A program made the position numbers and the translations under genes. From contig DASTYD010000149.1 of assembly GCA_035765175.1 (NCBI GenBank), positions 1-43,496 on the forward strand: a stretch of 43,496 nt of DNA, written 5' to 3'. Of this stretch, positions 4,480 through 32,577 are shown piece by piece (position 1 is the stretch's first letter; every line of letters begins with the position of its first letter). The stretch comes from Gaiellaceae bacterium (GTDB lineage: Bacteria > Actinomycetota > Thermoleophilia > Gaiellales > Gaiellaceae). The notes below the pieces were generated by a model that saw only the letters and a program-made list of their open reading frames with translations, did no database searches and had not been told where the DNA came from.

Positions 4480-4569
4480 GAGGTCTCCCCTCCCCAACGC
4501 CAGGATGTGTGGCGTTCTTACAACTTCCGTGGAGGCAATTCAAGGTTTCGAGGGACGCGCCGCCCTTAG

Positions 4570-5601: not shown

Positions 5602-5641
5602 CGCCTCTGATCTGTGAGAGTTAGGAGGCCGAAAGCGAGCA

Positions 5642-7027: not shown

Positions 7028-7033
7028 CGCCGC
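7018..7033. repeat. 16-nt perfect palindrome gcggcgCTAGcgccgc containing the stop codons of both convergent propeller genes
   Basis: Read directly: the + gene ends cgg cgc TAG (7025-7027). The - gene ends cgg cgc TAG (complement of 7024-7026). The two genes overlap by 4 nt at CTAG. Confidence 0.95.
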
Positions 7034-8550: not shown

Positions 8551-8574
8551 TCCACCGTTTTAGCGCGTGGAGTG
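8548..8574 (-). terminator. Hairpin downstream of msrA whose 3' arm contains the GTG start of the TolB-like gene
   Basis: cactccac (8548-8555) and gtggagtg (8567-8574) are perfect complements with an 11-nt loop. The hairpin lies 9 nt after the msrA stop on the minus strand. There is no U-tract. Confidence 0.4.
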
Positions 8575-8582
8575 CGGCTTGA

Positions 8583-9074
8583 CTAGGCGGAACCGACCTT
8601 GCGCAGGGCAGGCGTGCAGGTCGACCGGCCGCGCTTCTCGAGGTACTGCTGGTGGTAGTCCTCGGCCTCGAAGAAGGTCTGCGCGGGCTCGATCTGGGTC
8701 ACGACCGGCTGCGAGTAGTGCGTCTGCTCCTCGGCCTTCGAGCGCAGCGCCGCCTCCTGTTGCTCGTCGTCGTGGACGAAGACGACCGAACGGTATTGAT
8801 CGCCGATGTCCCAGCCCTGGCGGTTCAGCTGCGTCGGGTCGTGCTTGTCCCAGAAGACCTTCAAGAGATCGTCGTACGAGAGCTGCTCGTCGTCGTACGT
8901 GACCTCGACCACCTCGGCGTGGCCCGTCGTGTGCGAGCACACGTCCTCGTACGTGGGGCTCTCGGTGTGTCCGCCCGTGTAGCCGACGCGCGTCCGCGTA
9001 ACGCCATCGAGCTGCCTGAACGCCGCCTCGACGCCCCAGAAGCAGCCCGCTCCGAACGTTGCTCTCTTCTGCAC
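8583..9074 (-). CDS. msrA: Peptide-methionine (S)-S-oxide reductase MsrA
   Basis: [12 protein letters not shown] active-site motif (GCFWG). The fragments [27 protein letters not shown] and DYHQQYL also fit MsrA. Trimmed from track ORF 8583-9182 to the GTG at 9074, which is preceded by GGAGGAGGAG and overlaps the msrB stop (TAGTG). Confidence 0.9.
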
Positions 9075-9466
9075 TACTCCTCCTCCAGTTTCAAGGCCGC
9101 AGAGTTGATGCAATAGCGCTGGCCGGTCGGGTGCGGCCCGTCGGGGAACACGTGGCCGAGGTGGCCGCCGCAGTTCGCGCACAGAACCTCCGTGCGAACC
9201 ATCCCGAACGTCGCGTCGGTTTCCTCGTCGATCGCGTCCTCGCTCGCCGGCGCGTAGAAGGCCGGCCAGCCACAGCCCGAGTCGTACTTCGTGTCGGATG
9301 CGAAGAGCTCCGTGCCGCAGCCCGCGCAGTGGTACGTGCCCGGCTCGAACACGTGGTCGTACTCGCCCGTGAACGGCCGCTCAGTGCCCTTCTCGCGCAG
9401 CACGTGATACTGCTCGGGCGTCAGCTCGGCTCTCCACTCCTGCTCTGTTTTCTTGATCTTCGTCAT
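9074..9466 (-). CDS. msrB: Peptide-methionine (R)-S-oxide reductase MsrB, zinc-binding type
   Basis: [60 protein letters not shown]: two CxxC zinc pairs plus the GCGWP and RYCINS motifs. Only the last 130 codons of track ORF 9074-10336 are used. ATG at 9466. Confidence 0.9.
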
Positions 9467-9518
9467 TCCTAGCTGCCTTTGCTCTTGATTCGGTTGGTTC
9501 GACCGGTCATTTCCGACG

Positions 9519-9566
9519 GACGGGTAGCAGAGCCACCCGTCCTGAAACGGCAACGGAACCGTTGCC
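9519..9566 (-). terminator. Tandem hairpins between the ABC-2 permease gene and msrB
   Basis: GGCAACGG-AA-CCGTTGCC (9549-9566) has 8-bp arms and is followed on the minus strand by GUUUCAG. It is then followed by GACGGGT-9 nt-ACCCGTC (9519-9541). The U-tract is weak. Confidence 0.45.
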
Positions 9567-13788: not shown

Positions 13789-14039
13789 GCGAGATCGCCA
13801 TGGAGGTCAGCTGTCAGGAGCTCGTCGAGCTCGTCACGGGCTACCTCGACGGCGCTCTCCCGCCTGCGGAACGGGCGCGCTTCGACGCACACATTGCGGG
13901 CTGCGACGGCTGCCGCGCGTATCTCGAGCAGATCCGGCTGACGATCCGGCTCAGCGGCACGCTGCTCCCCGAGCAGCTCGACCCAGCCGCGGAGGAAGCG
14001 CTGCTCGAGGCCTTCCGCGACTGGAAGCGCAGACCGTAA
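13785..14039 (+). CDS. Soluble zinc-binding (ZAS, zf-HC2) anti-sigma factor, RsrA/RshA-like
   Basis: 84 aa with no transmembrane segment. Cys10-x25-His36-x3-Cys40-x2-Cys43 (HIAGCDGC). ATGA overlap with the sigma gene stop. Confidence 0.85.
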   Translation: MSEIAMEVSCQELVELVTGYLDGALPPAERARFDAHIAGCDGCRAYLEQIRLTIRLSGTLLPEQLDPAAEEALLEAFRDWKRRP

Positions 14040-14163
14040 GTCCCGGCCTCGTTCGGCATCTATCGGGCGAGCCGGGTGCTGGCCGGCGCCGGCGAGCATC
14101 AGGTGCGGCACTGGAGCTGTCGCCGTCGGCCCGGGGTCTCGCCCGGCTCTACCATGTGGCGAG

Positions 14164-15099
14164 ATGCGCTTCGGTGCTCTGCTCGCAGTCGCCCTCCTGC
14201 TTCCGGCGCTCGCCGAAGGTGCGTCCCCGAGCTGGCAGGGAGGCGCGCCGCTCCCGCTCGCGCGCGGCGAGGTGGCGGCGGCCGTCGCCGAGGGCCGGAT
14301 CTACGTCATCGGCGGCTTCGCCTCCACCGGCGAGAACTCGACCAGCGCGCAGGCCTACAACCCGGGCACGAACAGCTGGAGCCAGGAAGCCGACCTGCCG
14401 CTTCCGGTCGACCACGCAATGGCCGCGGGCTCTCGCGGCCGGGTCTATGTGGCGGGCGGCTACGGACCGGGGCGCTCTCGGTTGACCACGCTGTTCGCGT
14501 TCACCGGTGACGGGTGGACGAGGCTCGCGCCGATGCCCGAGCAGCGCGCCGCCGGCGGGGCCGCGATCCTCAACGGGAGGCTCTACGTCGTCGGCGGCAC
14601 GGCTTCCTCGACGATCGGAGCGCCCACCGACCTTGCTCGGACGATGCTCGTCTACGACATCGCTCGCGACAGCTGGACGAGCCGCCGTGGGCCGACTCCA
14701 CGCGAGCATCTCGGCGTCGCCGCGCTCGGTGGTCGGATCTACGCCGTGGGCGGCCGGACAGCCGGATTCGACACGAACATGGCCCTCGTCGAGGCATTCA
14801 ACCCGACGACCGGACGCTGGACGCGGCTCCCCAAGGTCCCGGGTCGACGCGGCGGGACCGGCGCGGCCGGCACCGGGCGCTGGATCGTCTCCGTCGGCGG
14901 CGAGGCGCCCGCCGGGACGATCCGCACGACCTACCGTTACGACGTCAGGCGCCGCCGCTGGTCGCGGCTCCCGAACCTCCCCACTCCGCGGCACGGGCTC
15001 GGCGTCGCGGCTGTCGGCCGGAAGGTCTACGTGATCGGGGGCGGGACGAAGCCCGGCCTCTCGGTCAGCCGAGCGAACGAGTCTCTGGTGGTTCGATAG
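14164..15099 (+). CDS. Secreted Kelch-repeat (six-bladed beta-propeller) protein
   Basis: Signal peptide MRFGALLAVALLLPALAEG. There are six repeats with the hydrophobic-GG hallmark (RIYVIGG, RVYVAGG, RLYVVGG, RIYAVGG, WIVSVGG, KVYVIGG), each followed by a W-containing strand. Confidence 0.85.
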   Translation: MRFGALLAVALLLPALAEGASPSWQGGAPLPLARGEVAAAVAEGRIYVIGGFASTGENSTSAQAYNPGTNSWSQEADLPLPVDHAMAAGSRGRVYVAGGYGPGRSRLTTLFAFTGDGWTRLAPMPEQRAAGGAAILNGRLYVVGGTASSTIGAPTDLARTMLVYDIARDSWTSRRGPTPREHLGVAALGGRIYAVGGRTAGFDTNMALVEAFNPTTGRWTRLPKVPGRRGGTGAAGTGRWIVSVGGEAPAGTIRTTYRYDVRRRRWSRLPNLPTPRHGLGVAAVGRKVYVIGGGTKPGLSVSRANESLVVR

Positions 15100-15367
15100 G
15101 GAGCCCGGTCACGACCTCGCGCCGGCCGCCGGCCTCGTAGACGAGGTCGACGCTGTCGTTCTGCCGGTACGTGCCGGCGATGCCGAGGAAGAGCGAGAGC
15201 CAGCGCCAGAAGCCGAGCCGGCCTTCCTTCGCGAGCGGGCGGTCGAAGAGGAGCGTCCGTCCCTCGACCTGGAAGTCGCGCCCGGGCTGCTGAGGGACGC
15301 CGTTCAGGAAGACCTCGTAGGGCTCCGTGACCTCCGGCGGCAGGCTCACCCGCGAGTGCTCAGGCAT
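15065..15367 (-). CDS. Hypothetical 100-aa protein
   Basis: ATG start and high G/C at codon position 3 throughout. Its 3' end overlaps the Kelch gene convergently by 35 nt. No motif recognised. Confidence 0.5.
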   Translation of the reverse strand: MPEHSRVSLPPEVTEPYEVFLNGVPQQPGRDFQVEGRTLLFDRPLAKEGRLGFWRWLSLFLGIAGTYRQNDSVDLVYEAGGRREVVTGLPIEPPETRSLG

Positions 15368-15412
15368 GCGACACCTCGCTCAATGTAGCCCCGTGGTCGG
15401 GTCACTCTTAGA

Positions 15413-16399
15413 ATGGCCCCGCCCGTGCGCCGGAAGCTTCTTGTCGCCTGTCTGAGCCTCCTGGCCCTGGCGCTCCTGCTGACAGGCTCGGCGATGGCCG
15501 GCAACGGAGGGATCGCGCCGCCGGCGGAGACGCCGCAGGCGGGGCGGATCAAGGACCTCTACTGGATCGTGCTGGGGATCACCGCGGTCATCTTCGTGAT
15601 CATCGAGGTCGCCCTGATCGTCTTCGTCGTCCGGTACCGCAACCGCGACCGGCCGCGCGACGACGAGGGCCCGCAGATCCGCGGACACAATCGTCTGGAG
15701 CTGATCTGGACCGTGATTCCGGTGCTGATCCTCGTCGCGATCATGGGCTTCGTCTTCTACAAGCTCCCGGGAATCAAGGACATCCCGGACAGGACCGCGG
15801 CCGGCGAGAAGCTGACCGTGCAGGTCGAGGGCAGGCAGTTCTACTGGCGCTTCAGATACCCGAACGGCGCCGTCTCCGTGAACGAGCTGCGCCTACCGGC
15901 CGGACGCCCCGTCGAGCTCGAGGTCACGGCCCCGGCAAACGACGTCATCCACAGCTGGTGGATTCCCGCCCTCGCGGGGAAGATGGACGCGATCCCGGGC
16001 AAGGTCAACCACCTCGACTTCGTGGCTCCGTCATCACCCGGCGTCTACCAGGGGCAGTGCGCCGAGTTCTGCGGTCTCCAACACGCGCTCATGCTCGCCC
16101 GCGCGCGAATCGTCACCGGAAGCGAGTTCGATGGCTGGGTCTCGGCCCGGCTCCGAGCGGGCACCGATCTCGGGAGACAGACGTTCGAGGGCGCGTGCGC
16201 TCCCTGTCACGGCCTGAGCGGCGAAGGGCTGATCGGCCCGCCGCTCGAAGGGAACGCCACACTGGCGGACGAGGAGCTCCTGAAGCAGCTGCTCGAGAAC
16301 GGCAAGAACGCGATGCCGCCGGTCGGCCGCGGCTGGGACGAACACCAGACCGACGCGCTGATCGCCTATGTGCAACAGGAGTTCGCAAGTGGCGGTTAG
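15413..16399 (+). CDS. ctaC: Cytochrome c oxidase subunit II with fused C-terminal cytochrome c domain (caa3-like)
   Basis: Signal sequence plus two transmembrane helices. CuA site HSWWIP...CAEFCGLQHALM. C-terminal haem c motif CAPCHG with a downstream Met (NAMPPVG). Confidence 0.92.
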   Translation: MAPPVRRKLLVACLSLLALALLLTGSAMAGNGGIAPPAETPQAGRIKDLYWIVLGITAVIFVIIEVALIVFVVRYRNRDRPRDDEGPQIRGHNRLELIWTVIPVLILVAIMGFVFYKLPGIKDIPDRTAAGEKLTVQVEGRQFYWRFRYPNGAVSVNELRLPAGRPVELEVTAPANDVIHSWWIPALAGKMDAIPGKVNHLDFVAPSSPGVYQGQCAEFCGLQHALMLARARIVTGSEFDGWVSARLRAGTDLGRQTFEGACAPCHGLSGEGLIGPPLEGNATLADEELLKQLLENGKNAMPPVGRGWDEHQTDALIAYVQQEFASGG

Positions 16400-20743: not shown

Positions 20744-21893
20744 GTCGTCCTCCTCGAGTGGTCGGTCGGGCGATCCTACGCCTCCGGGGATCTTCCTCGC
20801 GAGGCCCGATCGTGTCGCCGACGGCGTGCGCCTGGCCGTCAAGGACCTCTTCGACACCGCCGGACTGACGACGACGTACGGCTCGATCGTCTTCGCCGAC
20901 CACGTCCCCGAGACGAGCGCCGTAGCAGTGACGCGCTTGGAGGCGGCGGGCTACGCGAACGTCGGCAAGACGAACCTGCACGAGTTCGCGTACGGCATCA
21001 CCTCGGTCAATCCGCACTACGGCACGGTGCCCAACCCGAACTATCCGGGCCGCATGGCCGGCGGCTCGAGCGGGGGGTCGGCGGCTGCGCTCGCAGCCGG
21101 GCTCGCGGACGCGGCGCTGGGGACGGACTCGGGCGGCTCGATCCGGATCCCCGCAGCGTGCTGCGGCGTCGTCGGCTTCAAGCCGACCTACGGGCTCGTC
21201 TCGCTCGAGGGCGTGTTCCCACTGGCACCGAGCTTCGACCACGCCGGCCCGATGGCGCGCTCGGTCGCGGAGTGCACTGCGATGATGGAGGCCCTCGTCG
21301 ACGGCTTCGAGCCGATGACCGTCGAGTCTCTCGAGGAGCTCGAGGTCGGAGTCGCCTGGCTCGATCTGGCCGATCCTGCGATCCAGACGCGCGTGCGCGA
21401 GGCGACCGAGCTCTTCCCGCGCCGCCGCGACGTCGAATTCCCACTGACGGAAACCGTCGCGCCAATCTTCATGCGCGAGGTCGCCGACGTGCACCGCGAC
21501 CTCTTCGCTGAGTTCGCCGACTCTTACGGCGACAACGTGAGGACGAAGGTCGAGCGTTGCCTTGGGCTTCCCGACGCCAAGTACGAGCGCGGCCTGGCGG
21601 CACGTGAAGAGGTGCGCGAGCGGGCCGCGAGCGCCATCGACGGAGTTCACCTCGTCCTCACTCCCACGCTCGGCTTCGTCGCGCCGTCTCTGCCGGTCGA
21701 CGACCTCGAGATCCGCGAGGCGACGATTCGGCTCACGATCCCGTTCAACTCGCTTGGGTGGCCGGCGCTCGCATTGCCGTGCGGCGCTGCCGAGGACGGG
21801 CTTCCGGCCTCGCTTCAGATCGCGGGCAGTCCGGGCTCGGACGCGCTCGTACTGGCAGTCGGCGAGCTCGTCGAAACGCTCCTCAGACGCTAA
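20736..21893 (+). CDS. Amidase-signature family hydrolase, short N-terminus
   Basis: Catalytic Lys context [11 protein letters not shown]. Signature [27 protein letters not shown] (Ser-cisSer-Lys triad). The start is uncertain: the GTG at 20736 overlaps the divergent DUF4242 start by 8 nt. Confidence 0.8.
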
Positions 21894-22933
21894 TCACACT
21901 CGGCAGCGGCTTCCTTCGGGACGCTGACCGTGAGCGGCTTCTGGGGTGCCCAGTTGCCTTTCTGGACAACACGCGTGAACGGCACGAAGGCGAACCCTCT
22001 CGTCGCATCCGCGACCTGGGCGTTGAGTGTGAAGTCGAAGCGATCCTTGCCGCGGAACGGATCCTTGTCGGGATCGACTCGGAGGGTGAACCGCCCGTCG
22101 GGGCCACTGCGCGCCGAGGCGATCTCGGCGCTCGGCAGATTCGCCGGCCCCGTCGAGGACGGCCTGAGCACGGCACCGATCCGCGCCCGGGTCGGTCGGC
22201 AGTCTCGACCGAGCACCGTCCCGCTCACGAGCACGGGCGCGTCAGGGTCGAAGGCGGCTTCGTCGGTCGAGACGTAGTCGAAGCCCAGCACGGCCACCTG
22301 AAACCCCGAGGGAGCCCCGGAGGCGCTGAGCAAGCGAAACACGACGGGCCGGTAGCTGTCTTGGTCGATCCCGATCTGGAGAACCCCGAGGCCGCCGCGG
22401 CCCTCGAGCCGCACCCAGTGCACGGGCCGACCACGCCAGACTCCCTGGCCGACGATCGTCGCGTCGCCGGCGGCGAGAGCTTCGCGGTAGTACTCGGCCC
22501 CGTCGAGCAGTCCTGGGAACGTCGTGAACTCGTCCTCCGAGGCCCTCGTCGTGTAGTCGGCGATCGTCTCTCCGGCGTTTTGGCTGACCACTCGGACGAG
22601 CCCACGCTGCTTGTCGTAGAACGCCTCGTTCGTCACGGGCGAGAAATCGCGGCCCTCACCCCGTTGGAGCTTGATCGTCAAATGGGTAACCGGCCCTCCC
22701 GTGTCGATGGCGGCCAGAGCGCGGTCGAGGACCGATCTGCTCTCGCCGCCGCGATCCCAGGGAGAGGCGAGAACGAGCACGAACAGGGCTGCTGCCACCA
22801 ACGCCACCGCCGTTACCGCGCCGAAGGGCTTCATCCGGCGCAGGCGCTGCGTCTCGACGACAGCGTCCGCGAGCGCGAGCAGCTCCGGGTCGTCGCGCAG
22901 CTCCTCCAGCACCTCGCGGTCACGGATGGTCAT
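21890..22933 (-). CDS. Membrane-anchored putative anti-sigma factor with a large extracytoplasmic domain
   Basis: ATGA overlap with the upstream ECF sigma gene. It has a short cytoplasmic N-terminus, one transmembrane helix (FGAVTAVALVAAALFVLVLASPW) and a ~290-aa outside domain. The C-terminal part (LVSGTVLGRD...SGPDGRFTLRV) resembles a carboxypeptidase-regulatory-like beta-sandwich. Confidence 0.6.
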   Translation of the reverse strand: MTIRDREVLEELRDDPELLALADAVVETQRLRRMKPFGAVTAVALVAAALFVLVLASPWDRGGESRSVLDRALAAIDTGGPVTHLTIKLQRGEGRDFSPVTNEAFYDKQRGLVRVVSQNAGETIADYTTRASEDEFTTFPGLLDGAEYYREALAAGDATIVGQGVWRGRPVHWVRLEGRGGLGVLQIGIDQDSYRPVVFRLLSASGAPSGFQVAVLGFDYVSTDEAAFDPDAPVLVSGTVLGRDCRPTRARIGAVLRPSSTGPANLPSAEIASARSGPDGRFTLRVDPDKDPFRGKDRFDFTLNAQVADATRGFAFVPFTRVVQKGNWAPQKPLTVSVPKEAAAECD

Positions 22934-23412
22934 GGTTCGATCCCCCTCTCGATCAACTCTTCGCGCAACGCTTCGAGCGCACGCCTGAAACGCATCTTGG
23001 CCGCGGCCTCGGTGAGGCCGACCTCGCGTCCGATCTCGGCGAACGTCAGCCCCCGCAGGAGCTTGAGGACGATCACCTGGCTCTGCCCACCGGGGAGCGC
23101 GCCGAGAGCCTCGCGGAGCGCTCGCGCGACGAACGGCCCGTAGTCCGAGGAGCTTCGCGTCTCGGGCAGGTTGACGCGCTTCTCGCGCCGCTGCCTGCGA
23201 GTCTCGTCCACGAAGCGTCGCCTCGCGACGGTGTAGAGCCAAGCGAGCACGGGTGGGTCCCCCTCCTGTGGGTCGGGCAGCCCCGCCGCAGCGGCGGCGA
23301 AGACGTCCTGGGTCAGCTCCTCCGCGCGGTGCGGATCGCGAATCCGCCGGCGGAGGTAGCCGTAGACGTGCTGGTAGTGCCGGCGAAAAGCGCCCTCGGC
23401 AGCTCCGTTCAC
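22930..23412 (-). CDS. ECF (sigma-70 family) RNA polymerase sigma factor
   Basis: 160 aa with a GTG start. Region 2: AEELTQDVFAAAA...WLYTVARRRFVDETRR. Region 4: QSQVIVLKLLRGLTFAEIGREVGLTEAAAKMRFRRALEALR. Confidence 0.85.
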   Translation of the reverse strand: MNGAAEGAFRRHYQHVYGYLRRRIRDPHRAEELTQDVFAAAAAGLPDPQEGDPPVLAWLYTVARRRFVDETRRQRREKRVNLPETRSSSDYGPFVARALREALGALPGGQSQVIVLKLLRGLTFAEIGREVGLTEAAAKMRFRRALEALREELIERGIEP

Positions 23413-23630
23413 ACCCTTCTTCTCGTTCAGAGCCTCAGAAAGTAACGAAGCACGGGGAAACCCCTGGTTCTCCCGTGAGCCCCTCCTTCAGATCGGAGGC
23501 GTCATACGAGGTCTGCGGAGCCGGCGGATGCATCGGAAGTTCGAGCGTTCCCTTCTCCGGTGGGAGCCTCCCGCCGGGCAAAGCCCGGCTCCGGCAGCGG
23601 ATCACAGTGGCGCTCGAAGGCTTCGAGAAC

Positions 23631-24512
23631 CTATCGCGCGGCCGCGCGCGAAGCGGCCTCGTAGACACGGTCGCGCGAGAACTCGTCCAGCTCGGCTGAG
23701 AGGAGTTCGCTCGAGGTCGGGTGACCGCGGGGCACTGGGCACGCTGTGCCGTCCACATCGACCGCCACGAGCTCCTCCGAGTCGTCGTGCTCGAGCTCGA
23801 CCTCGCGCTCGAGCCGGGAGCGGAGCCAGCCTGCGAGGAGCGACGCCTCGGCCACCGGCCCCTCGACGCGCAGTGTGCCGAGCTCGGCGATCCCGGGCCA
23901 CATGCGCGCGAGGCAGCGGCGCCAGCGCTCGGTGCGCCGCCACGCGATGTCGGAGCACGCGGTGCTCTCGAACGGCAGCTCCCCGTAGGCGTCCGGCACG
24001 TCGGGCCACTCGCGCGAGTCGACGATCAGGCGGTCGCAGACCTCGACGAGCTGGTCGACGTTCCGCTCGCCGAACTGCGGGCGCCCGCGCCAGCGCAGGA
24101 ACACGGGCAGGGCGGGGACGAGCAGCGGGTTGACGATGCTCGCCGGCGCCTGACAGCTGCGCCCGCGGAGGCGGAGCTCGATCACCTCGGCCGCGATGTG
24201 CCGGCGCTGCTCGCGGAGCGGAAACGCGAGCACGGAGATCTTTGCGTCCATCCCGTCCTCGGCGTCAGGACGCGGGAAGAGGAGGATCCCGCGCGAGGGG
24301 TGCCGCTCCTCGAGGCCGGCGAGCGTCTCGAGCGCCGCGTCCTCCCACTCGGGAGGCACCCAGGCGAGGTGGGTCATCACGCTCGTCCGGAGATCGGGTC
24401 CCTCTGTCTCGTGGGCGCTCTCGTCACGCAGGCGGCAGAGCTCAGTGACGACGTCGCCGACCCCGACGTCCTCGCCCGACCACTCCTCTGCGTGGACGTG
24501 CGTCGTGCTCAA
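23631..24512 (-). CDS. opcA: Glucose-6-phosphate dehydrogenase assembly protein OpcA
   Basis: The last 293 codons of a 774-aa track ORF. Its position immediately after zwf (TTGA overlap; an in-frame GTG 5 codons upstream is an alternative) and segments such as LRTSVMTHLAWVP and LPVFLRWRG fit OpcA. Confidence 0.75.
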   Translation of the reverse strand: MSTTHVHAEEWSGEDVGVGDVVTELCRLRDESAHETEGPDLRTSVMTHLAWVPPEWEDAALETLAGLEERHPSRGILLFPRPDAEDGMDAKISVLAFPLREQRRHIAAEVIELRLRGRSCQAPASIVNPLLVPALPVFLRWRGRPQFGERNVDQLVEVCDRLIVDSREWPDVPDAYGELPFESTACSDIAWRRTERWRRCLARMWPGIAELGTLRVEGPVAEASLLAGWLRSRLEREVELEHDDSEELVAVDVDGTACPVPRGHPTSSELLSAELDEFSRDRVYEAASRAAAR

Positions 24513-26023
24513 TGCCGGAGCCACTCCCTGCCGTCGCGCTGGATCAGCTCGTCCGCCGCGGCCGGGCCCCAGGTCCCGGCGGCGTAGTTCGGGAACGCGG
24601 GCCGGTCGCGGGCCCAGCCGGCGACGATCGCGTCGACGATCGACCACTGCTCCTCGACCTCGTCCGAACGCGTGAACAACGTCTGGTCGCCCAGCATCGC
24701 GTCGAGGATGAGGCGCTCGTACGCGTCGGGCAGCTCCACGCGGAAGGCGCCGCCGTACATGAAGTCCATGTGGACGGTGCGGATGCGCATCCCCTGGCCC
24801 GGCACCTTGGCGCCGATCGCGAGCGACACGCCTTCGTCGGGCTGCACGTGGACGAGCAGGAGGTTCGGCTGGAGCTCCTCGGTCGCAGAGTCCTCGAACG
24901 GCGGATGCGGCGCGCGCTGGAACTGGATTGCGATCGTCGTCTCGCGGCGCGCCAGGGATTTGCCGGTGCGGACGTAGATCGGCGTGTCGGCCCAGCGCCA
25001 GTTGTCCACGAACAGCTTCGCGGCCACGTAGGTCTCGATCATCGACTGCGGGTCGACGTCGTCCTCGTCGCGATAGCCGGGCGCCTCCGTGCCCTCGACG
25101 AAGCCGGGTCCGTACTGGCCGCGGACGACGTTCTTCGGCCCCGGCGTGCGCATCGCCTTCAGCACCTTGACCTTCTCGTTGCGCACCGAGTCGGCGGTGA
25201 AGTCGATCGGCGGCTCCATCGCGGTCAGCGCGACGAGCTGGAGCATGTGGTTCTGGAAGATGTCTCGGATCGCGCCCGCCTGCTCGTAGTAGGCGGCGCG
25301 GCCTTCGACTCCCAGCGTCTCGGCGACTGTGATCTGGATGTGGTCGATGAACTGGCGGCTCCAGATCGGCTCGAAGATGCCGTTCGCGAAGCGGAGCGCG
25401 AGCATGTTCTGGACGGTCTCTTTTCCAAGGTAGTGGTCGATGCGGAAGACCTCTTCCTCGGCGAACGAGCCGCCGATCAGGCCGGTCAGCTCCCGCGCGG
25501 AGGCGAGGTCGTGGCCGAACGGCTTCTCGACGATGAGCCGCGTCCAGCCCTCGGTCTTTCGGCGCTCGCCGAGCTCCCTGACGATGGTCGGCATCGCCTG
25601 CGGCGGTACGGCGAGGTAGTAGACGCGGTTGCCTCGTGTGCCTCGCCCTTCGTCGAGCTCTGTCAGGAGGTCGCTCAGCTTGTCCTCCCGAGACTCGTTC
25701 GCGAAGTCCATCGAGACGTAGCGGGTGGCATCGGCGAGCCCGTCCCAGACCTCCTGCTCGAAGTCGTCGCGGCCGAATTCGCGGACGGCGTGCTCCATTC
25801 GGTCTCGGTACTCGTCGTCGCTCAAGTCCGAGCGCGCGGCGCCGACGACCGCGAACCGCTCCGGCAGCAGCCGCCGGTAGGCGAGCGCGTAGAGGGCCGG
25901 GAAGATCTTCCGTCGCGTCAGGTCGCCGGACGCGCCGAAGATGACGAGCACGCACGGCTCGGGCGTCCTCCGCGGCCCGAGCCCCTCGAGCAGCGGATTC
26001 TCGGCGACCTGAGTCTCGGTCAT
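24509..26023 (-). CDS. zwf: Glucose-6-phosphate 1-dehydrogenase
   Basis: FGASGDLTRRKIFPALY dinucleotide motif, RIDHYLGKE active-site motif and EKPFG, in a 504-aa protein. Confidence 0.95.
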   Translation of the reverse strand: MTETQVAENPLLEGLGPRRTPEPCVLVIFGASGDLTRRKIFPALYALAYRRLLPERFAVVGAARSDLSDDEYRDRMEHAVREFGRDDFEQEVWDGLADATRYVSMDFANESREDKLSDLLTELDEGRGTRGNRVYYLAVPPQAMPTIVRELGERRKTEGWTRLIVEKPFGHDLASARELTGLIGGSFAEEEVFRIDHYLGKETVQNMLALRFANGIFEPIWSRQFIDHIQITVAETLGVEGRAAYYEQAGAIRDIFQNHMLQLVALTAMEPPIDFTADSVRNEKVKVLKAMRTPGPKNVVRGQYGPGFVEGTEAPGYRDEDDVDPQSMIETYVAAKLFVDNWRWADTPIYVRTGKSLARRETTIAIQFQRAPHPPFEDSATEELQPNLLLVHVQPDEGVSLAIGAKVPGQGMRIRTVHMDFMYGGAFRVELPDAYERLILDAMLGDQTLFTRSDEVEEQWSIVDAIVAGWARDRPAFPNYAAGTWGPAAADELIQRDGREWLRH

Positions 26024-26156: not shown

Positions 26157-27029
26157 TCATTGCTTCTTCTTCACCGGATGGCCGCCGAACTCGGCTCGGA
26201 GGATGGCGTTGATCTTGGCCGCATAGGACTCGTCCTGGCGAGACGCGAAGCGCGCATAGAGGGCGGCGGTGATCACGGGCAGCGGCACCGCCGCGTTGAC
26301 GGCTTCCTCCACGGTCCAACGCCCTTCGCCGGAGTCCTCGACGTAGTCGGAGATGTCGTCGAGCTCGCCCCCGTGCTTGGCGAGCGCGTCGTGCAAGAGC
26401 TCGATGAGCCACGAGCGGACGACCGAGCCGTAGCGCCAGATCCCCGAGATCTGCTCGAAGTCGAGGTCGAACTCCGAGGCGCGCATGAGGTCGAAGCCCT
26501 CGGCGTAGGCCTGCATCAAGCCGTACTCGATCCCGTTGTGAACCATCTTCACGAAGTGCCCCGCGCCAGACGGGCCGACGTGCGCCCAGCCGCCGGGCGG
26601 GGCGAGCGTCTCGAGGGCCGGTTGAAGCAGCCCAACGCCCCGGTCGGGCCCACCAGCCATCAGGCAGAAGCCCTCCTGCAACCCCCAGATTCCGCCGGAC
26701 ACGCCCACGTCGAGAAACTCGATCCCCCTCTCGGCGGCCTCCTCGTTCCGCCGTTGCGAATCGTGGAAGTTCGAGTTGCCGCCGTCGACGAGCACGTCGC
26801 CGCTCTCGAGAATCCCGAGCAGCTCCCGCGTCGTGTCCTCGGTGATCTTGCCCGCCGGGATCATCATCCAGACGACGCGCGGGGACTCGAGCTGCGACGC
26901 GAGGTCCTCGAGCGACGACGCGGTCGACTCCACCTGTGGGTCGTACGTCATCACCTCGTGCCCACCCTGGCGCAGGCGCTCCGTCATCCCCGAGCCCATG
27001 CGTCCCAGACCGACCATCCCGAGCTTCAC
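26157..27029 (-). CDS. gnd: 6-phosphogluconate dehydrogenase (decarboxylating), short ~290-aa type
   Basis: GMVGLGRMG Rossmann motif and GAGHFVKMVHNGIEYG signature. The GTG at 27029 follows GGAGGA and overlaps the pgi stop (GTGA). Confidence 0.9.
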   Translation of the reverse strand: MKLGMVGLGRMGSGMTERLRQGGHEVMTYDPQVESTASSLEDLASQLESPRVVWMMIPAGKITEDTTRELLGILESGDVLVDGGNSNFHDSQRRNEEAAERGIEFLDVGVSGGIWGLQEGFCLMAGGPDRGVGLLQPALETLAPPGGWAHVGPSGAGHFVKMVHNGIEYGLMQAYAEGFDLMRASEFDLDFEQISGIWRYGSVVRSWLIELLHDALAKHGGELDDISDYVEDSGEGRWTVEEAVNAAVPLPVITAALYARFASRQDESYAAKINAILRAEFGGHPVKKKQ

Positions 27030-28378
27030 AGGTCCTCCAGTCTCACACGGCACACCGTCCGTCCGCGCTCCTTCAGCGATTCCAAATCACCCGCGGCCTG
27101 GGCAGAGATGAGCTGCCTGAACCCGAACCGGCGACCGGGAATCCCAAGCTCCTCACCGAGGTCGTCGACGACCTGGATCGCGAGCACGGTGTTCGGGCCT
27201 CCCTTGTGCAGCTGGCCGGTCGAATGCAGATAGCGCGGACCGAGGCCCTTGGTGACCACACACCCGGTCTCGCGCGCCCGCATGACCAGCGGGTCGAGGT
27301 CCCCCTCGCGCGCGGGGTCGATGAACGCCTGGATCGCGATGTACTGAGGGGGCTCTGCCTGCGCAAGTAGATCGTCGAGCGACCCTTCTGGACCTGGCTG
27401 AGGGACGGTCCCTTGTGACAGAAGGGCGTTCGTCTTGTCCTTGGCGGCCTGCACGTCCGGCTGGTCGAACGGATTGATGCCGAGGATCGAGCCTGCGACC
27501 GCGGTGGCGAACTCCCACCTGTAGAACTCTGCGCCGACGTCATACGGGTCGTCGAGCCGGACACGCCCAAGCTGGCGGTCCGGCCCACCGCCAGGATCCT
27601 CACCCGGAGCGGGTACTACGCCTTTTCCCTGCTTGCCCGTCGACTCCGCGAGCAGCTGCTCCGCCCAGAGCCCGAACCCGACCGGGCTCTCTTCGATACA
27701 GACCTTGTCGCGGCCCTCGCTCCAGTTCTCGCCGAGCTCGGCGCCGAACTGAAAGCCGGGGTTCTCTTCACCGAGCCGGCACCAGCCGGCCATCGCGTCT
27801 GCGCGCTCGAGGATCGCTTGCACGTCGAGGTCGACGAGCGCCGCCGGAACCATTCCGAACGGCGACAGCGCCGAGTACCGCCCGCCGATCGTCGGCTCGC
27901 CGTTGACGACCCAGACGAAGTCGTGCGCCCTGGCGAATTGCTCGAGCTCGGTGTCGGGATCGGTGATCGCCGCGAAGCGGTTCTCGCCACCGCTGCGCTT
28001 CATGAAGTAGTCGAGCTGAGAGCGGGTCTCGAGCGTCGTCCCCGACTTGGACGCGGCGACGAAGAGCGTCCGACCGACAACGTCGAGCCGCTCCTCGAGG
28101 CGCCGAATCGCGGACGGGTGGGTCGTGTCGAGCACGTGCAGCGTCTCGACCGCGAACGTGCGTCGGATCACCTCCGGCGCGAGGCTCGACCCGCCCATCC
28201 CGAGCAGGACGATGTCCTCGTATTCGCGGTCGAGGCTCTCGAGCTCCTCGACGCGCTCGAGCATCCGGCCCGGCTCGTCGAGCCACCCGAGCCACTTCGC
28301 CTCATCGGTGCCCGTCCAGATCGTCGGGTCGCGGGCCCAGATCCTGTCGACGAGCTCGACGGGCTCGAGCGCGGTCAT
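27026..28378 (-). CDS. pgi: Glucose-6-phosphate isomerase (short bacterial type)
   Basis: LGMGGSSLAPE, SKSGTTLET and IGGRYSALS motifs. 450 aa. ATGA overlap with the upstream hydrolase gene. The N-terminal 231 aa of the track ORF were discarded. Confidence 0.9.
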   Translation of the reverse strand: MTALEPVELVDRIWARDPTIWTGTDEAKWLGWLDEPGRMLERVEELESLDREYEDIVLLGMGGSSLAPEVIRRTFAVETLHVLDTTHPSAIRRLEERLDVVGRTLFVAASKSGTTLETRSQLDYFMKRSGGENRFAAITDPDTELEQFARAHDFVWVVNGEPTIGGRYSALSPFGMVPAALVDLDVQAILERADAMAGWCRLGEENPGFQFGAELGENWSEGRDKVCIEESPVGFGLWAEQLLAESTGKQGKGVVPAPGEDPGGGPDRQLGRVRLDDPYDVGAEFYRWEFATAVAGSILGINPFDQPDVQAAKDKTNALLSQGTVPQPGPEGSLDDLLAQAEPPQYIAIQAFIDPAREGDLDPLVMRARETGCVVTKGLGPRYLHSTGQLHKGGPNTVLAIQVVDDLGEELGIPGRRFGFRQLISAQAAGDLESLKERGRTVCRVRLEDL

Positions 28379-29151
28379 GACAGAAAGTCGAGGACGAGGC
28401 GGTCGAACTCGTCCGGCCGCTCCATGCTCGGCACGTGCGCGACGCCGGCCATCGTCTCGCGCCGCGCATTCGGGATCTCGGCTTCGAGCCGTCCTGCAAT
28501 CTCGAGCATCTCCGGCCGGTCGAGGTCCCCGACGATGACGAGCGTCGGGACCGCGATCTCTGCGAGCCGGTCGCCCCAGTCTTCCGCGAGCGGTTGCGGC
28601 TCGCCGTCTTCGCCCGCTTCGAGATAGATCTCGATCGCACGCCGCTGCATCTCGCCCACCTTCGAACGCACCTCCGGATCGACCTCGCCCGGCGAGCGAG
28701 ACGGGCCGTCCACCCACATGCGCAGGTTGACCTCGACCGCCTCGTCGACGTCGCCGCGCTCGAGGGCTGCATCTTCTTCTTCCCAACCCGCCTTCGTCTC
28801 CTCGTTCATCTCGAACCCGCGCAGTCCCGGGGCGACGAGCACGAGCCGCGACACGAGCTCGGGCCGCGCGATGGCAACCTCCATGGCGACGGACCCGCCA
28901 AGCGAGACTCCCACGAGCGCGGCGGGCCCCAGCCGGAGCTCGTCTAACAGCTGAGCCACGTCGCCGGCCCACGAGAACGTCCCGACGGCGGCGGGCGACT
29001 GGCCGAAGCCGCGCAGGTCGAGGCGCACCACCCGGAACTGCTCCGAGTACGGCCTCCACTGCGGCTCCCACATACGACTGTCGGCGATTCCCTCGTGCAC
29101 AAGGACGACGGGCGGCCCTTCACCCGCCTGCTCCCAGTACAGGTCAGTCAC
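28375..29151 (-). CDS. Alpha/beta-fold hydrolase embedded in the pentose-phosphate operon
   Basis: 258 aa. Nucleophile elbow GVSLGG (GxSxG), acid VIVGDLD, and His in GVAHVPSMERPDEF. The GTG start overlaps the tal stop (GTGA) and the stop overlaps the pgi start (ATGA). Confidence 0.85.
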   Translation of the reverse strand: MTDLYWEQAGEGPPVVLVHEGIADSRMWEPQWRPYSEQFRVVRLDLRGFGQSPAAVGTFSWAGDVAQLLDELRLGPAALVGVSLGGSVAMEVAIARPELVSRLVLVAPGLRGFEMNEETKAGWEEEDAALERGDVDEAVEVNLRMWVDGPSRSPGEVDPEVRSKVGEMQRRAIEIYLEAGEDGEPQPLAEDWGDRLAEIAVPTLVIVGDLDRPEMLEIAGRLEAEIPNARRETMAGVAHVPSMERPDEFDRLVLDFLS

Positions 29152-30251
29152 GCCGGAGCAAGCTGGCCGCGCTTCGCCTCGATGCCCTCGAGCAGCTCCG
29201 TAAAGGAGTCGATGAACTTCTGGACGCCCTCTCGCTCGAGCGTCTCGGTCACGTCGTCGTAGTCGACGCCGGCGGCTTCGACCTGCTCGAAGACCTGCTT
29301 CGCCTCGTCGATGCCCTCTTCCAGGGTGAGCGCGACCTCTCCGTGGTCCTGGAAGGCTTCGATCGTCTCGCGCGGCATCGTGTTCACGGTGCCGGGCCCG
29401 ATCAGATCCTCGACGTAGAGCACGTCGCGGTACTCCGGGTTCTTCGTCGAGGTAGACGCCCAGAGGCACCACTGCGGAGTCGCGCCTTTCGCCGCGAGGG
29501 CCTCCCAGCGCTCCCCGGAGAACTTCTCCTCGTAGTTCTGGTACGCGAGCTTCGCGTTCGCGACTGCAAGCTTGCCCTTCAGCTCCGGGTGCCCGGCCCC
29601 GTCGAGCCGCCGGTCGGCCTCCGTGTCGACCCGCGAGACGAAGTAGCTGGCGACCGAGCCGACGTTCGCCGGATCGCCGCCCGCCTCGACGAGCCGCTCG
29701 AGCCCGCGGATATACGCCTCGGCTACCTCCATGTGCCGCTCGAGCGAGAAGATCAGCGTCACGTTGATGTTGCGACCGCGCGCGATCATCTCCTCGATCG
29801 CCGGCAGCCCGGGCTTCGTCGCCGGGATCTTCACGTAGAGGTTCGGGCGCTCGACCCAGTCGTGGAAGCGCGCCGCCTCCTCGATCGTCGCGTCGGTCTC
29901 GTAGGCGAGGTTCGGGTCGACCTCCATCGAGATGTAGCCGTCCTTCCCCTTGCCGCCGTCCCAGACGGAGCGGAAGAGGTCGCACGCCTCCTCGATGTCG
30001 GCGATCGCGAGCTGGAGGAAGGTCTCCTTGAGGTCGTCCTCATGCTCGAGCACCTCGCGGAGCTGGTCGTCGTACCACTCGCCCTCGGCCATCGCCTTCT
30101 GGAAAATCGTCGGGTTCGAGGTGACGCCTGTGAGGGCGTCCTCTTCCATCCACTTCGCAAGCGAGCCGGTCTTCAGCCAGCCGCGCGAGAGCGAGTCGAT
30201 CCAGACCGACTGGCCGAGCCCTGCGATCTGATGCAAACGTGATTCACCCAT
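29148..30251 (-). CDS. tal: Transaldolase (long actinobacterial type)
   Basis: GVTSNPTIF and the Schiff-base Lys context YVKIPAT, in a 367-aa protein. Confidence 0.93.
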   Translation of the reverse strand: MGESRLHQIAGLGQSVWIDSLSRGWLKTGSLAKWMEEDALTGVTSNPTIFQKAMAEGEWYDDQLREVLEHEDDLKETFLQLAIADIEEACDLFRSVWDGGKGKDGYISMEVDPNLAYETDATIEEAARFHDWVERPNLYVKIPATKPGLPAIEEMIARGRNINVTLIFSLERHMEVAEAYIRGLERLVEAGGDPANVGSVASYFVSRVDTEADRRLDGAGHPELKGKLAVANAKLAYQNYEEKFSGERWEALAAKGATPQWCLWASTSTKNPEYRDVLYVEDLIGPGTVNTMPRETIEAFQDHGEVALTLEEGIDEAKQVFEQVEAAGVDYDDVTETLEREGVQKFIDSFTELLEGIEAKRGQLAPA

Positions 30252-30696
30252 GTGCTTTCTCTAGTTCCTCGATCTTCTCCAATCTACGCACATACCGGTC
30301 TCCTCCGTCGAACTTCGCTTCCAGGAAGGTGCGAACGAGCTCGGCGGCGAGCTCCGCGCCGATCACCTCGGAGCCGATGCAGAGGACGTTCATGTCGTCG
30401 TGCTCGACGCCCTGGTGCGCCGAGTACGTGTCGTGGCACGTCGCGGCGCGGATGCCCGCGAGCTTGCTGGCGGCGATCGACGCGCCAACCCCGGAGCCGC
30501 AGACGAGGACACCACGGTCCGCGCCGCCCGACTGGATCGCCTCGCCGACCTCGCGGGCCTTGTCCGGATAGTCGATCTTCGGCTCCGGCGCGTCCGTGCC
30601 GAAGTCGACCGTCTCGTGCCCCAGCGCCTCGACCTCCTCGAGGACGCGCGCGCGCAGCTTGACCCCGCGATGGTCGAAGGCGACCGCAACCCGCAT
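30244..30696 (-). CDS. rpiB: Ribose-5-phosphate isomerase B
   Basis: 150 aa. MRVAVAFDHRG, VLVCGSGVGASIAASK (catalytic Cys) and the HDDMNVLC motif. Overlaps the tal start by 8 nt. Confidence 0.92.
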   Translation of the reverse strand: MRVAVAFDHRGVKLRARVLEEVEALGHETVDFGTDAPEPKIDYPDKAREVGEAIQSGGADRGVLVCGSGVGASIAASKLAGIRAATCHDTYSAHQGVEHDDMNVLCIGSEVIGAELAAELVRTFLEAKFDGGDRYVRRLEKIEELEKAHG

Positions 30697-30717
30697 CGAG
30701 AAGTTACGTTACCTGGG

Positions 30718-32577
30718 ATGGAAGGCCCGGAACTCTGGCGTGAGCTAGGCCAGCAGCTGCGCGTCGACTCGGTGCGCGCCGCGGCGGTCACGAGCTCGGG
30801 GCACCCGACGTCGTCCATGTCGGGGGCCGACCTCATGGCGGTGCTGCTCGCGAAGCACCTCCACTACGACTTCGAAAACCCCGACGACCCGCGGAACGAC
30901 CACCTGGTCTTTTCGAAGGGCCACGCGTCGCCGCTCCTGTACGCGATGTACAAGGCAGCCGGCGCGATCACCGACGAGGAGCTTCTGACCTTCCGCAAGT
31001 TCGGGAGCCGCTTGGAAGGCCACCCGACCCCGGTGCTCCCATGGGTCGACGTCGCGACGGGCTCGCTCGGCCAGGGACTGCCTTACGGCGTCGGGATCGC
31101 GCTCGCCGGGAAGCGGCTCGACCGGTTGCCGTACACGACCTGGGTGCTCTGCGGTGACAGCGAGATCGCCGAGGGCTCGGTGTGGGAGGCCTTCGAGCAC
31201 GCGGCCTACGAGCGGCTCGACAACCTGACGGCGATCATCGACGTCAACCGGCTCGGGCAGCGCGGCGAGACGATGCACGGCTGGGACCTCGACTCGTATG
31301 CGAGCCGGGCCGAGGCTTTCGGCTGGCATGCGATCGAGATCGACGGTCACGATGTCGAGGCGATCGACCGCGCCTACACGGAGGCGGCCGGCACCACGGG
31401 TGTCCCGACCGTGATCGTCGCGAAGACGATCAAGGGCAAGGGCGTGACGGAGGTCGAGAACAAGGACGGTTTCCACGGCAAGGCACTGCCGGAGCCGGAA
31501 AAGGCGATCGAGGAGCTCGGCGGCATCCGCAACATCACGGTCGAGGTATCCAAGCCGGAGATCGAGGGCGAACCGCACGTGTTCGAGTCGTCCGGCACGG
31601 TCGAGCTCCCGACGTACGAGGTGGGCGACGAGGTGGCGACGCGCAAGGCGTACGGCGACGCGCTGAAGGCGATCGGCGACGGTCGCGGTGACGTCGTCGC
31701 GCTCGACGGCGAGGTCTCGAACTCGACCTACGCGGAGATCTTCGCCGCTGCTCACCCGGACCGGTACTTCGAGATGTTCATCGCAGAGCAGCAGATGGTC
31801 GCGGCGGCGGTCGGAATCCAGGTGCGCAAATGGAAGCCCTTCGCGTCGACGTTCGCGGCGTTCTTCACGCGCGCGTACGACTTCGTCCGGATGGCCGCGA
31901 TCAGCAGGGCGAACATCAAGCTCTGCGGCTCGCACGCGGGCGTCTCGATCGGCGAGGACGGGCCTTCGCAGATGGCGCTCGAGGATCTCGCCACTTTCCG
32001 CGCAGTGCACAGCTCGACGGTGCTCTACCCGAGCGACGCCAACCAGGCCGCGAAGCTCGTGGAAGCGATGGTCGACCTCGACGGCATTTCCTTCCTGCGC
32101 ACGACCCGCGCCGAGACGCCGGTCATCTACGAGGCGGGCGAGGACTTTCCCGTCGGCGGGGCCAAGGTCGTGCGGTCGTCGGACGACGACGAAGTGACGC
32201 TGATCGGAGCCGGGATCACGTTGCACGAGGCCCTGAAGGCCGCAGACTCGCTGGCGAGCGAAGGGGTGAGCGCACGCGTGATCGACCTCTACTCGGTGAA
32301 GCCGGTGGACGGCGAGACGCTGCGCGCGGCAGCCGAGGCGACCGGGGGCCGGTTCGTCGTCGCCGAGGACCACTGGCCCGAGGGCGGCCTGGGCGAGGCG
32401 GTCCTGTCGGCGTTCGCCGACTCCGATGAGAGCCCGAGAGTCGTCCACCTCGCGGTGCGCGAGATGCCGGGCTCGGGCAAGCCGGCCGAGCTTCTTGCAG
32501 CTGCCGGGATCGACGCGGAGCACATCGCGAGCGCGGCGCGTCAGCTCGTCGCGAGCACCGTCGGCGCAGCCAACTGA
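30718..32577 (+). CDS. tkt: Transketolase (~620-aa, mammalian-like short type)
   Basis: SGHPTSS, VFSKGHASPLLYA, GSLGQGL, GDSEIAEGSVWEA and NRLGQRG thiamine-diphosphate motifs. ATG at 30718. The upstream 106 codons of the track ORF overlap rpiB and were discarded. Confidence 0.93.
   Translation: MEGPELWRELGQQLRVDSVRAAAVTSSGHPTSSMSGADLMAVLLAKHLHYDFENPDDPRNDHLVFSKGHASPLLYAMYKAAGAITDEELLTFRKFGSRLEGHPTPVLPWVDVATGSLGQGLPYGVGIALAGKRLDRLPYTTWVLCGDSEIAEGSVWEAFEHAAYERLDNLTAIIDVNRLGQRGETMHGWDLDSYASRAEAFGWHAIEIDGHDVEAIDRAYTEAAGTTGVPTVIVAKTIKGKGVTEVENKDGFHGKALPEPEKAIEELGGIRNITVEVSKPEIEGEPHVFESSGTVELPTYEVGDEVATRKAYGDALKAIGDGRGDVVALDGEVSNSTYAEIFAAAHPDRYFEMFIAEQQMVAAAVGIQVRKWKPFASTFAAFFTRAYDFVRMAAISRANIKLCGSHAGVSIGEDGPSQMALEDLATFRAVHSSTVLYPSDANQAAKLVEAMVDLDGISFLRTTRAETPVIYEAGEDFPVGGAKVVRSSDDDEVTLIGAGITLHEALKAADSLASEGVSARVIDLYSVKPVDGETLRAAAEATGGRFVVAEDHWPEGGLGEAVLSAFADSDESPRVVHLAVREMPGSGKPAELLAAAGIDAEHIASAARQLVASTVGAAN

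Follow-up and report, generated by a model that had tools for sequence, protein, structure and literature searches.

An alpha/beta-hydrolase gene at the tal-pgi junction of a Gaiellaceae pentose-phosphate operon: a putative family esterase or lactonase with a patchy distribution

Results

Gene organization of the pentose-phosphate operon

Contig DASTYD010000149.1 of the Gaiellaceae bacterium assembly GCA_035765175.1 (43,496 nucleotides, analysed over its whole length and called the window here) carries on its minus strand an operon for the pentose-phosphate pathway (PPP), in which a gene for a 258-aa alpha/beta-fold serine hydrolase sits exactly between tal and pgi. The window has a G+C content of about 69%, and its closest named relatives are Gaiellaceae metagenome-assembled genomes (MAGs) of the Thermoleophilia (Actinomycetota). 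A sequence-only reading of this DNA had proposed that the hydrolase is a non-orthologous 6-phosphogluconolactonase (Pgl). The descriptive premises of that proposal stood up in our analysis, whereas the genomic tests mostly weaken its functional part. The layout that it described, rpiB-tal-hydrolase-pgi-gnd followed by zwf-opcA, a spacer of 218 nt, and a gene for an extracytoplasmic function (ECF) sigma factor, with tkt divergent, was recovered with Pfam and NCBIfam profiles and from the sequence itself.

Table 1. Coordinates and assignments of the operon genes and flanking features in the window.
Feature	Position	Strand	Basis
Transketolase (tkt), 619 aa, divergent from rpiB	30718-32577	+	PF00456, PF02779, PF02780
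Ribose-5-phosphate isomerase B (rpiB), operon gene 1	30244-30696	-	PF02502, 164 bits
Transaldolase (tal), actinobacterial type	29148-30251	-	PF00923, 282 bits; NF002881, 504 bits
Alpha/beta-fold serine hydrolase, 258 aa	28375-29151	-	Stop-free translation; PF00561/PF12697
Glucose-6-phosphate isomerase (pgi), type found fused to Tal	27026-28378	-	PF00342; NF007080, 452 bits
6-Phosphogluconate dehydrogenase (gnd), short form	26157-27029	-	NF007161, 410 bits; TIGR00872, 343 bits
Glucose-6-phosphate dehydrogenase (zwf)	24509-26023	-	PF02781 and PF00479
OpcA, glucose-6-phosphate dehydrogenase (G6PD) assembly protein	23631-24524	-	PF10128 and PF20171; start codon
Non-coding spacer, 218 nt, site of devB-type pgl in relatives	23413-23630	-	Sequence
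ECF sigma factor, post-opcA position	22930-23412	-	PF04542 and PF08281

Both overlaps of the hydrolase gene with its neighbours were found as described: its GTG start overlaps the TGA stop of tal (GTGA, 4 nt), and its TGA stop overlaps the ATG start of pgi (ATGA, 4 nt). Upstream, rpiB overlaps the start of tal by 8 nt. Downstream, the GTG start of gnd overlaps the pgi stop (GTGA, 4 nt) and is preceded by GGAGGA, zwf starts 133 nt after gnd, and opcA overlaps the end of zwf by 16 nt. Tal and Pgi are indeed of the kind that some bacteria have as a fusion protein, since Pgi aligns to the PGI half of NF007080, the model for the fused Tal-Pgi protein, and Tal matches the same model. The identities given earlier to gnd and tkt hold, and small corrections are likely for the starts of both: position 27029 is likelier for gnd than 27053, and 30718 is likelier for tkt than 30400, giving a product of 619 aa that fits the 618-aa homologue at the related locus L001. 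Between rpiB and tkt, which are divergent, the two start codons are 21 nt apart (30697-30717; 20 nt in L001), so the promoters of both genes must sit inside the neighbouring coding sequences. Consensus scans of this high-GC operon for promoters and terminators yielded nothing useful.

Sequence, predicted structure, and conservation of the hydrolase

Profile searches placed the protein among the alpha/beta hydrolases, above the gathering thresholds and over its full length, with matches to PF00561 (Abhydrolase_1; 85.2 bits, cutoff 25.8) and PF12697 (Abhydrolase_6; 75.5 bits, cutoff 26.3). The dienelactone hydrolase family PF01738 was not among its Pfam matches at E <= 0.001. Translation confirmed the complete Ser-Asp-His elements, with Ser83 in GVSLGG, Asp211 in VIVGDLD, and His239 in GVAHVP, and an HEG oxyanion motif lies at residues 19-21. 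Without exception, the 15 operon-linked copies keep the nucleophile elbow (G81-V-S83-L-G85), D211, and H239, which also occur in 80% or more of the relatives at greater distance.

A model made with AlphaFold2 (AF2; pLDDT 84.2, pTM 0.86) has the canonical sheet and a three-helix cap, with the cap helices predicted at residues 117-131, 135-147, and 159-179. In Foldseek searches with this model, MenH, Est816, aryl esterases, and C-C hydrolases reached TM scores of 0.70-0.77, and none of the matches pointed to a specific function. The top sequence match in the PDB was Est816, with 26% identity, followed by esterases, PhaZ, MenH, and PcaD; identity to any solved structure was 28% or less.

The ratio of nonsynonymous to synonymous substitution rates (dN/dS) of the hydrolase gene is 0.15-0.29, comparable to that of pgi, zwf, and opcA, and metagenomes hold hundreds of full-length 258-aa homologues with 74-91% identity to the window protein. 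Purifying selection acts on this intact gene, and its product, which has the alpha/beta-hydrolase fold and a complete triad, is predicted from sequence and model to be a working enzyme. A decaying or non-functional passenger would suit the patchy distribution described below, including the absence of the gene from close sister lineages. The intact open reading frame (ORF), the triad that is unchanged in 15 orthologues, the dN/dS values, and the wealth of full-length homologues make such a passenger extremely improbable.

The best NCBIfam similarities of the hydrolase were to PcaDC, PcaCD, and PcaD, at 111-123 bits against cutoffs of 256-430. The identities PcaD (TIGR02427; 111.2 bits against a curated cutoff of 255.85) and BioH (TIGR01738; 68.4 bits against 206.95) were rejected, as were MenH and RutD, the scores of which were far under the cutoffs. 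JGI automatically names hundreds of the metagenomic homologues '3-oxoadipate enol-lactonase' or 'pimeloyl-ACP methyl ester carboxylesterase' (ACP, acyl carrier protein). This naming looks like systematic over-annotation, because the window protein falls far below the NCBIfam cutoffs of those families. If the automated names were correct, the hydrolase would be PcaD (3-oxoadipate enol-lactonase) or BioH (pimeloyl-ACP methyl ester esterase), as the ranking of the Pca models, the weaker BioH match, and the JGI names would have it. However, every score lies far under its curated cutoff, and neither the window nor the 80 related loci described below contain pca or bio genes; we consider these names very unlikely to be right.

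Distribution of the hydrolase gene at the tal-pgi junction

A scan with Tal, taking one genome per GTDB species, gave 80 loci (Tal 63-91% identical), nearly all of them labelled Gaiellaceae, Gaiellales, or unclassified Actinomycetes. By tblastn mapping, the rpiB-tal-pgi-gnd-zwf-opcA operon is present in almost all of these loci. The hydrolase lies between tal and pgi in 12 of the 68 species loci that show both genes; L036, the sequence of which ends after the hydrolase, and L001, which came from another source, stand outside this count. In most of the loci without the hydrolase, tal abuts or overlaps pgi.

In a neighbour-joining (NJ) tree of Tal, Zwf, and Pgi, the hydrolase-bearing loci form two non-sister clades. 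Clade A consists of the window and L001-L003, and its sister L005 is without the hydrolase, as is L010; L018 and L040 are absent from the tree and were assigned to clade A by identity. Clade B consists of L013-L015, L022, L025, L027, and L061, with L035, which has no hydrolase, nested inside it. In L005, L010, and L035, tal directly adjoins pgi. Between the two clades, identity is 57-63% for the hydrolase, 63-65% for Pgi, and 53-56% for OpcA. The tal-hydrolase-pgi order, the conservation of which the sequence-only reading had proposed to check, is therefore conserved only in two sub-clades. An old insertion with several later losses would account for the pattern, as far as gene content and tree topology indicate, and transfer of an operon segment by recombination is also possible.

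At L037, the tal-pgi junction (1959-3282) hosts a 288-aa multi-pass membrane protein and a 111-aa ORF, both unrelated to the hydrolase. The membrane protein has no Pfam match and is CcdA/DsbD-like by eye. This unrelated cargo indicates that the tal-pgi junction is a repeated, tolerated insertion point.

Changes were also seen elsewhere in the operon. At L034, a fragment of a DDE transposase (15320-15898) lies inside a 3.7-kb insertion between pgi and gnd. According to the tblastn mapping, the gnd slot holds two types, 60-80% or 48-50% identical to the window Gnd (the loci listed for this difference are L013, L014, L015, L022, L025, L058, L060, L064, L067, L070, and L080), which suggests in-place gene replacement.

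The pgl gene and the site after opcA

None of the scanned ORFs of the window matched PF01182 (DevB/SOL) or PF10282 (YbhE), and tblastn with the DevB-type Pgl of the close relative L020 gave no match in the window. The claim that the operon holds no recognisable pgl is thus borne out, and a ribulose-5-phosphate 3-epimerase gene (rpe) was likewise not found in the window. The position after opcA, where the sequence-only reading expected an actinobacterial pgl, proved to be its place in the relatives. A PF01182 gene directly follows opcA in 5 of the Tal-sampled loci. A profile of these five Pgl proteins retrieved thousands of homologues, many of them named 6-phosphogluconolactonase and from Gaiellaceae, and a metagenome scan provided 80 pgl loci, about 74 of them with upstream DNA. 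The pgl gene lies directly 3' of opcA in every visible context, about 80 of 80 loci with upstream DNA, drawn from 7 looked-up loci and from the metagenome scan (L020, L029, L038, L047, L059, and L082-L169 have this order).

The neighbours downstream of pgl, which encode an amidase, UbiA, COX1, and COX2, are the genes that lie beyond the sigma/anti-sigma pair of the window. These common neighbours point to an ancestral layout ...zwf-opcA-pgl / amidase-ubiA-cox, in which pgl has gone from this site in many lineages including that of the window. Because the devB-type gene of this lineage was seen nowhere but after opcA, the hydrolase-bearing genomes are probably without it; a divergent or YbhE-type pgl elsewhere in these genomes is possible. 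In the window, the slot after opcA (21890-23630) is occupied by the ECF sigma gene and a downstream ORF without a Pfam match; in the corresponding segment of L013 (16601-18083), the downstream ORF is DUF4349. A sigma/anti-sigma-like pair follows opcA in many hydrolase-less relatives as well, which indicates that pgl was replaced earlier and more widely than the hydrolase was inserted. The Gaiella occulta genome paper states, without listing the genes, that 'all PPP genes were identified'. In the pgl-bearing locus L082 (1-2306), a tkt-tal-pgi-gnd-zwf-opcA-pgl operon adjoins genes for the RuBisCO large subunit and a LysR regulator; this placement links the operon to a Calvin-cycle cluster.

Co-occurrence of the hydrolase and pgl

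The pgl gene is present in none of the 12 hydrolase loci, and the hydrolase is present in none of the approximately 30 pgl loci at which the tal-pgi junction can be seen. The 57 fully informative Tal-sampled loci comprise 11 with the hydrolase only, 5 with pgl only, 41 with neither, and none with both (Fisher p = 0.57 for the 2x2 table). In the pgl-sampled loci, the hydrolase was found in 0 of 25, with a P of about 0.008 that counts related sequences rather than independent events. By accession-number proximity, the Pgl and hydrolase proteins of NCBI MAGs had no assembly in common. Clade B and the pgl-bearing clade are sisters, and the lack of co-occurrence follows the clade structure. Accordingly, the anti-correlation with devB that had been put forward as a check is seen as zero co-occurrences, but it is not significant once the clades are considered. 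The pattern appears equally compatible with replacement and with separate clade histories. The 41 of 57 loci with neither gene indicate that the operon works without the hydrolase and without an operonic pgl.

These observations bear directly on the proposed lactonase role, in which the hydrolase would be a non-orthologous 6-phosphogluconolactonase that replaces the lost post-opcA devB-type gene; Ser83 would attack the lactone carbonyl and the cap arginines would hold the 6-phosphate. Such a role would account for the position inside an operon of the oxidative and non-oxidative PPP with overlapping stop and start codons, and for retention in two clades under purifying selection. It is also favoured by the constant place of devB-type pgl in relatives and its lack at that site in the window, by the absence of any locus with both genes when clade B has a pgl-bearing sister, and by the lactonases (PcaD models, Est816) among the sequence and structure neighbours. 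In addition, loss of pgl is costly in E. coli (bioRxiv 10.1101/2023.11.29.569206). On the other hand, most of the informative loci have neither gene, clade structure suffices to account for the non-co-occurrence, and the L037 junction shows that unrelated genes can occupy the same place. Our literature search turned up no alpha/beta-hydrolase with 6-phosphogluconolactonase activity and no third lactonase type.

Members of the hydrolase family outside the operon

An exhaustive family search covered 1.8 billion cluster representatives. Beyond the group of the window hydrolase itself, the next relatives in the representative search were 45-52% identical, and a profile search found many Gaiellales members with 55-69% identity to the operon copies. 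Several of the latter have other gene neighbours. Three copies (P0401, P0463, and P0494; P0401 is from a Gaiellales MAG) lie between a divergent malic-enzyme gene and polA, P0419 follows ribF in a nusA-infB-truB-ribF cluster and is itself followed by GNAT genes, and P0428 follows corA. P0129 and P0130 are not adjacent to tal or pgi. The window protein shares 55-62% identity with the polA-, ribF-, and corA-linked copies, and for other operon-linked copies the figure is 60-69%, so that the copies at these sites resemble the operon copies as much as clades A and B resemble each other. We found no consistent linkage of the family with zwf, gnd, or other PPP genes; the nearest members have polA, ribF, or corA as neighbours or are on contigs that hold no PPP gene.

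In an NJ tree of the hydrolase, bootstrapped with a fast distance method, the polA and ribF types were excluded from the operon copies in only 52 of 100 replicates, and P0130 and P0428 nested within the operon-linked copies. Judged by this tree, the operon-linked copies are not robustly monophyletic. The operon copies have 69 invariant residues. Of these, 39 recur in 80% or more of the relatives with 45-52% identity, including the cap motif WVDGPxR...MQR (W146, D148, G149, P150, R152, R162, and M168). W123 is the sole residue specific to the operon copies. Almost all of the invariant residues thus recur in relatives that, wherever their context was checked, lie apart from PPP genes, and nothing points to a pocket specialised in the operon copies.

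The multi-domain members of the family are tandem alpha/beta hydrolases (ABH) or combine ABH with GNAT or a methyltransferase, and none of those found in an all-against-all representative search is fused to a PPP enzyme. P0140, P0142, P0207, and P0121-P0125 are fusions to GNAT (in both orders), to an S-adenosylmethionine (SAM) methyltransferase, or to a second hydrolase copy; in L170, the ribF-linked copy likewise has GNAT genes after it. Such fusions and neighbours might point to an acetyl-ester or acyl substrate.

The equally close homologues beside polA, ribF, and corA, the lack of a clade-specific pocket residue beyond W123, and the lack of fusions to PPP enzymes further weaken the idea that the hydrolase is a non-orthologous 6-phosphogluconolactonase, which we regard as unlikely although deserving of attention. 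A slightly less likely extension would ascribe the same activity to the whole Gaiellales family at any site. After the loss of devB, the family would then have taken over as a 6-phosphogluconolactonase of a third type, with the alpha/beta-hydrolase fold; the tal-pgi copies would have been recruited into the operon, and the genomes that appear to have neither gene would carry a copy beside polA, ribF, or corA.

The delta form of 6-phosphogluconolactone is reactive, acylates nucleophiles, and isomerises to a gamma form. The hydrolase could accordingly be, instead of the main lactonase, a PPP-linked damage-control esterase, useful but dispensable, that acts on by-products of the oxidative PPP steps such as the slowly hydrolysed gamma-lactone isomer or gluconoyl adducts. 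This idea draws on the operon position in the same way as the lactonase role does, and dispensability suits both the patchy distribution with its repeated absences in sister lineages and a lineage without a dedicated pgl. The family copies in non-PPP contexts, with which the pocket residues are shared, speak against it, and we judge it to be distinctly improbable.

Discussion

A family esterase or lactonase at a tolerated insertion point

On balance, we think it somewhat probable that the hydrolase is a family esterase or lactonase that was inserted at the tal-pgi junction and is co-expressed with, but dispensable for, the operon. Sequence comparisons suggest the following scheme. The gene would encode a functional, small serine hydrolase of a PcaD-like alpha/beta-hydrolase family that is common in Gaiellales; a helical cap accompanies its triad of Ser83, Asp211, and His239. 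Among the Gaiellaceae, some lineages would have received one copy, lodged exactly at the tal-pgi junction, where it would be co-transcribed with the operon and, in the lineage of the window, translationally coupled to both flanking genes. Its substrate would most likely be a small ester or lactone, as is presumed for the rest of the family, and probably an anionic one because conserved Arg residues sit in the cap. The enzyme would not be a required or dedicated step of the PPP. Instead, the operon would supply constitutive, housekeeping-level expression, as the polA, ribF, and corA sites may do for the sister copies, and the gene would be kept at the junction because the site gives steady co-expression. 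We infer the co-transcription, the substrate class, and the independence from the PPP.

Several points weigh against this account. The exact junction has been kept through approximately 40% protein divergence, with 4-nt overlaps on both sides in clade A; such retention together with the overlaps is more than a recent accident would leave and is a classical signature of functional coupling. The lineage of the window has lost the post-opcA devB-type pgl, and the hydrolase was never found together with pgl. The closest characterised relatives include true lactonases, namely PcaD and the acyl-homoserine lactone (AHL) lactonase/esterase Est816. The other locations of the family are compatible with a lactonase function common to all copies, since a pgl gene does not have to lie in the operon. 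Finally, the positive part of the explanation is generic, and the substrate is putative.

Significance

What has been documented is that, in most of the sampled Gaiellaceae, the operon site at which relatives have devB-type pgl is without it, that the tal-pgi junction tolerates insertions, and that an abundant, uncharacterised family of soil hydrolases is mis-named by automated pipelines. A 6-phosphogluconolactonase role, if true, would add a third, unrelated fold to a step of central metabolism and would explain how many devB-less actinobacteria run the PPP's oxidative branch. It would also mean that hundreds of soil-metagenome annotations as '3-oxoadipate enol-lactonase / BioH' need correction.

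Other features of the window and of related loci

On the minus strand, an ORF of more than 1,490 aa covers positions 1-4497 and runs past the start of the window. No Pfam family matches it, G, T, A, S, and N are abundant in its composition, and a hydrophobic, signal-like stretch lies at its N-terminus; from these properties, the product looks like a beta-helix or adhesin-type surface protein. The segments 5618-8559, 8583-9562, and 13942-15099 hold two convergent beta-propeller proteins with C-terminal PASTA, an msrA/msrB pair, and a Kelch-repeat protein. One of the convergent beta-propeller proteins is of the FG-GAP type (plus strand) and the other of the PD40 type (minus strand). Among the related loci, L004, L045, L056, and L071 have a Gaiellaceae-type operon (Tal 67-79%) in MAGs labelled Gemmatimonadales, Verrucomicrobiota, Pseudomonadota, and Bifidobacteriaceae, and these labels are probably binning or labelling errors.

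Comparison with known systems

The two established types of 6-phosphogluconolactonase have little in common with the hydrolase. DevB/SOL Pgl (PF01182) shares with it only the proposed reaction and the operon family; it has a Rossmann-like NagB fold and no sequence similarity, and its gene is located after opcA instead of between tal and pgi. YbhE Pgl (PF10282), a seven-bladed beta-propeller, shares only the proposed reaction, and the model of the hydrolase is not a propeller.

The sister copies in Gaiellales (P0401/P0463/P0494, P0419, and P0428) agree with the window hydrolase in length, triad, and cap motif, but their contexts are without PPP genes. PcaD (TIGR02427; PDB 2XUA) resembles it in the fold, the length of approximately 260 aa, the Ser-Asp-His triad, and the helical cap, and gives the best NCBIfam similarity over the full length. 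PcaD catalyses the hydrolysis of a lactone; the window hydrolase differs in having no beta-ketoadipate pathway context. Est816 (PDB 5EGN), a metagenomic esterase deposited as AHL-degrading, is the best PDB match over the full length (E = 4e-20) and the second-best Foldseek match to the hydrolase model (TM 0.72-0.76). It differs from the hydrolase in its sequence, with 26% identity and another cap sequence, and its own substrates are hydrophobic acyl lactones rather than sugar phosphates, yet it demonstrates lactone-ring opening by this sub-fold.

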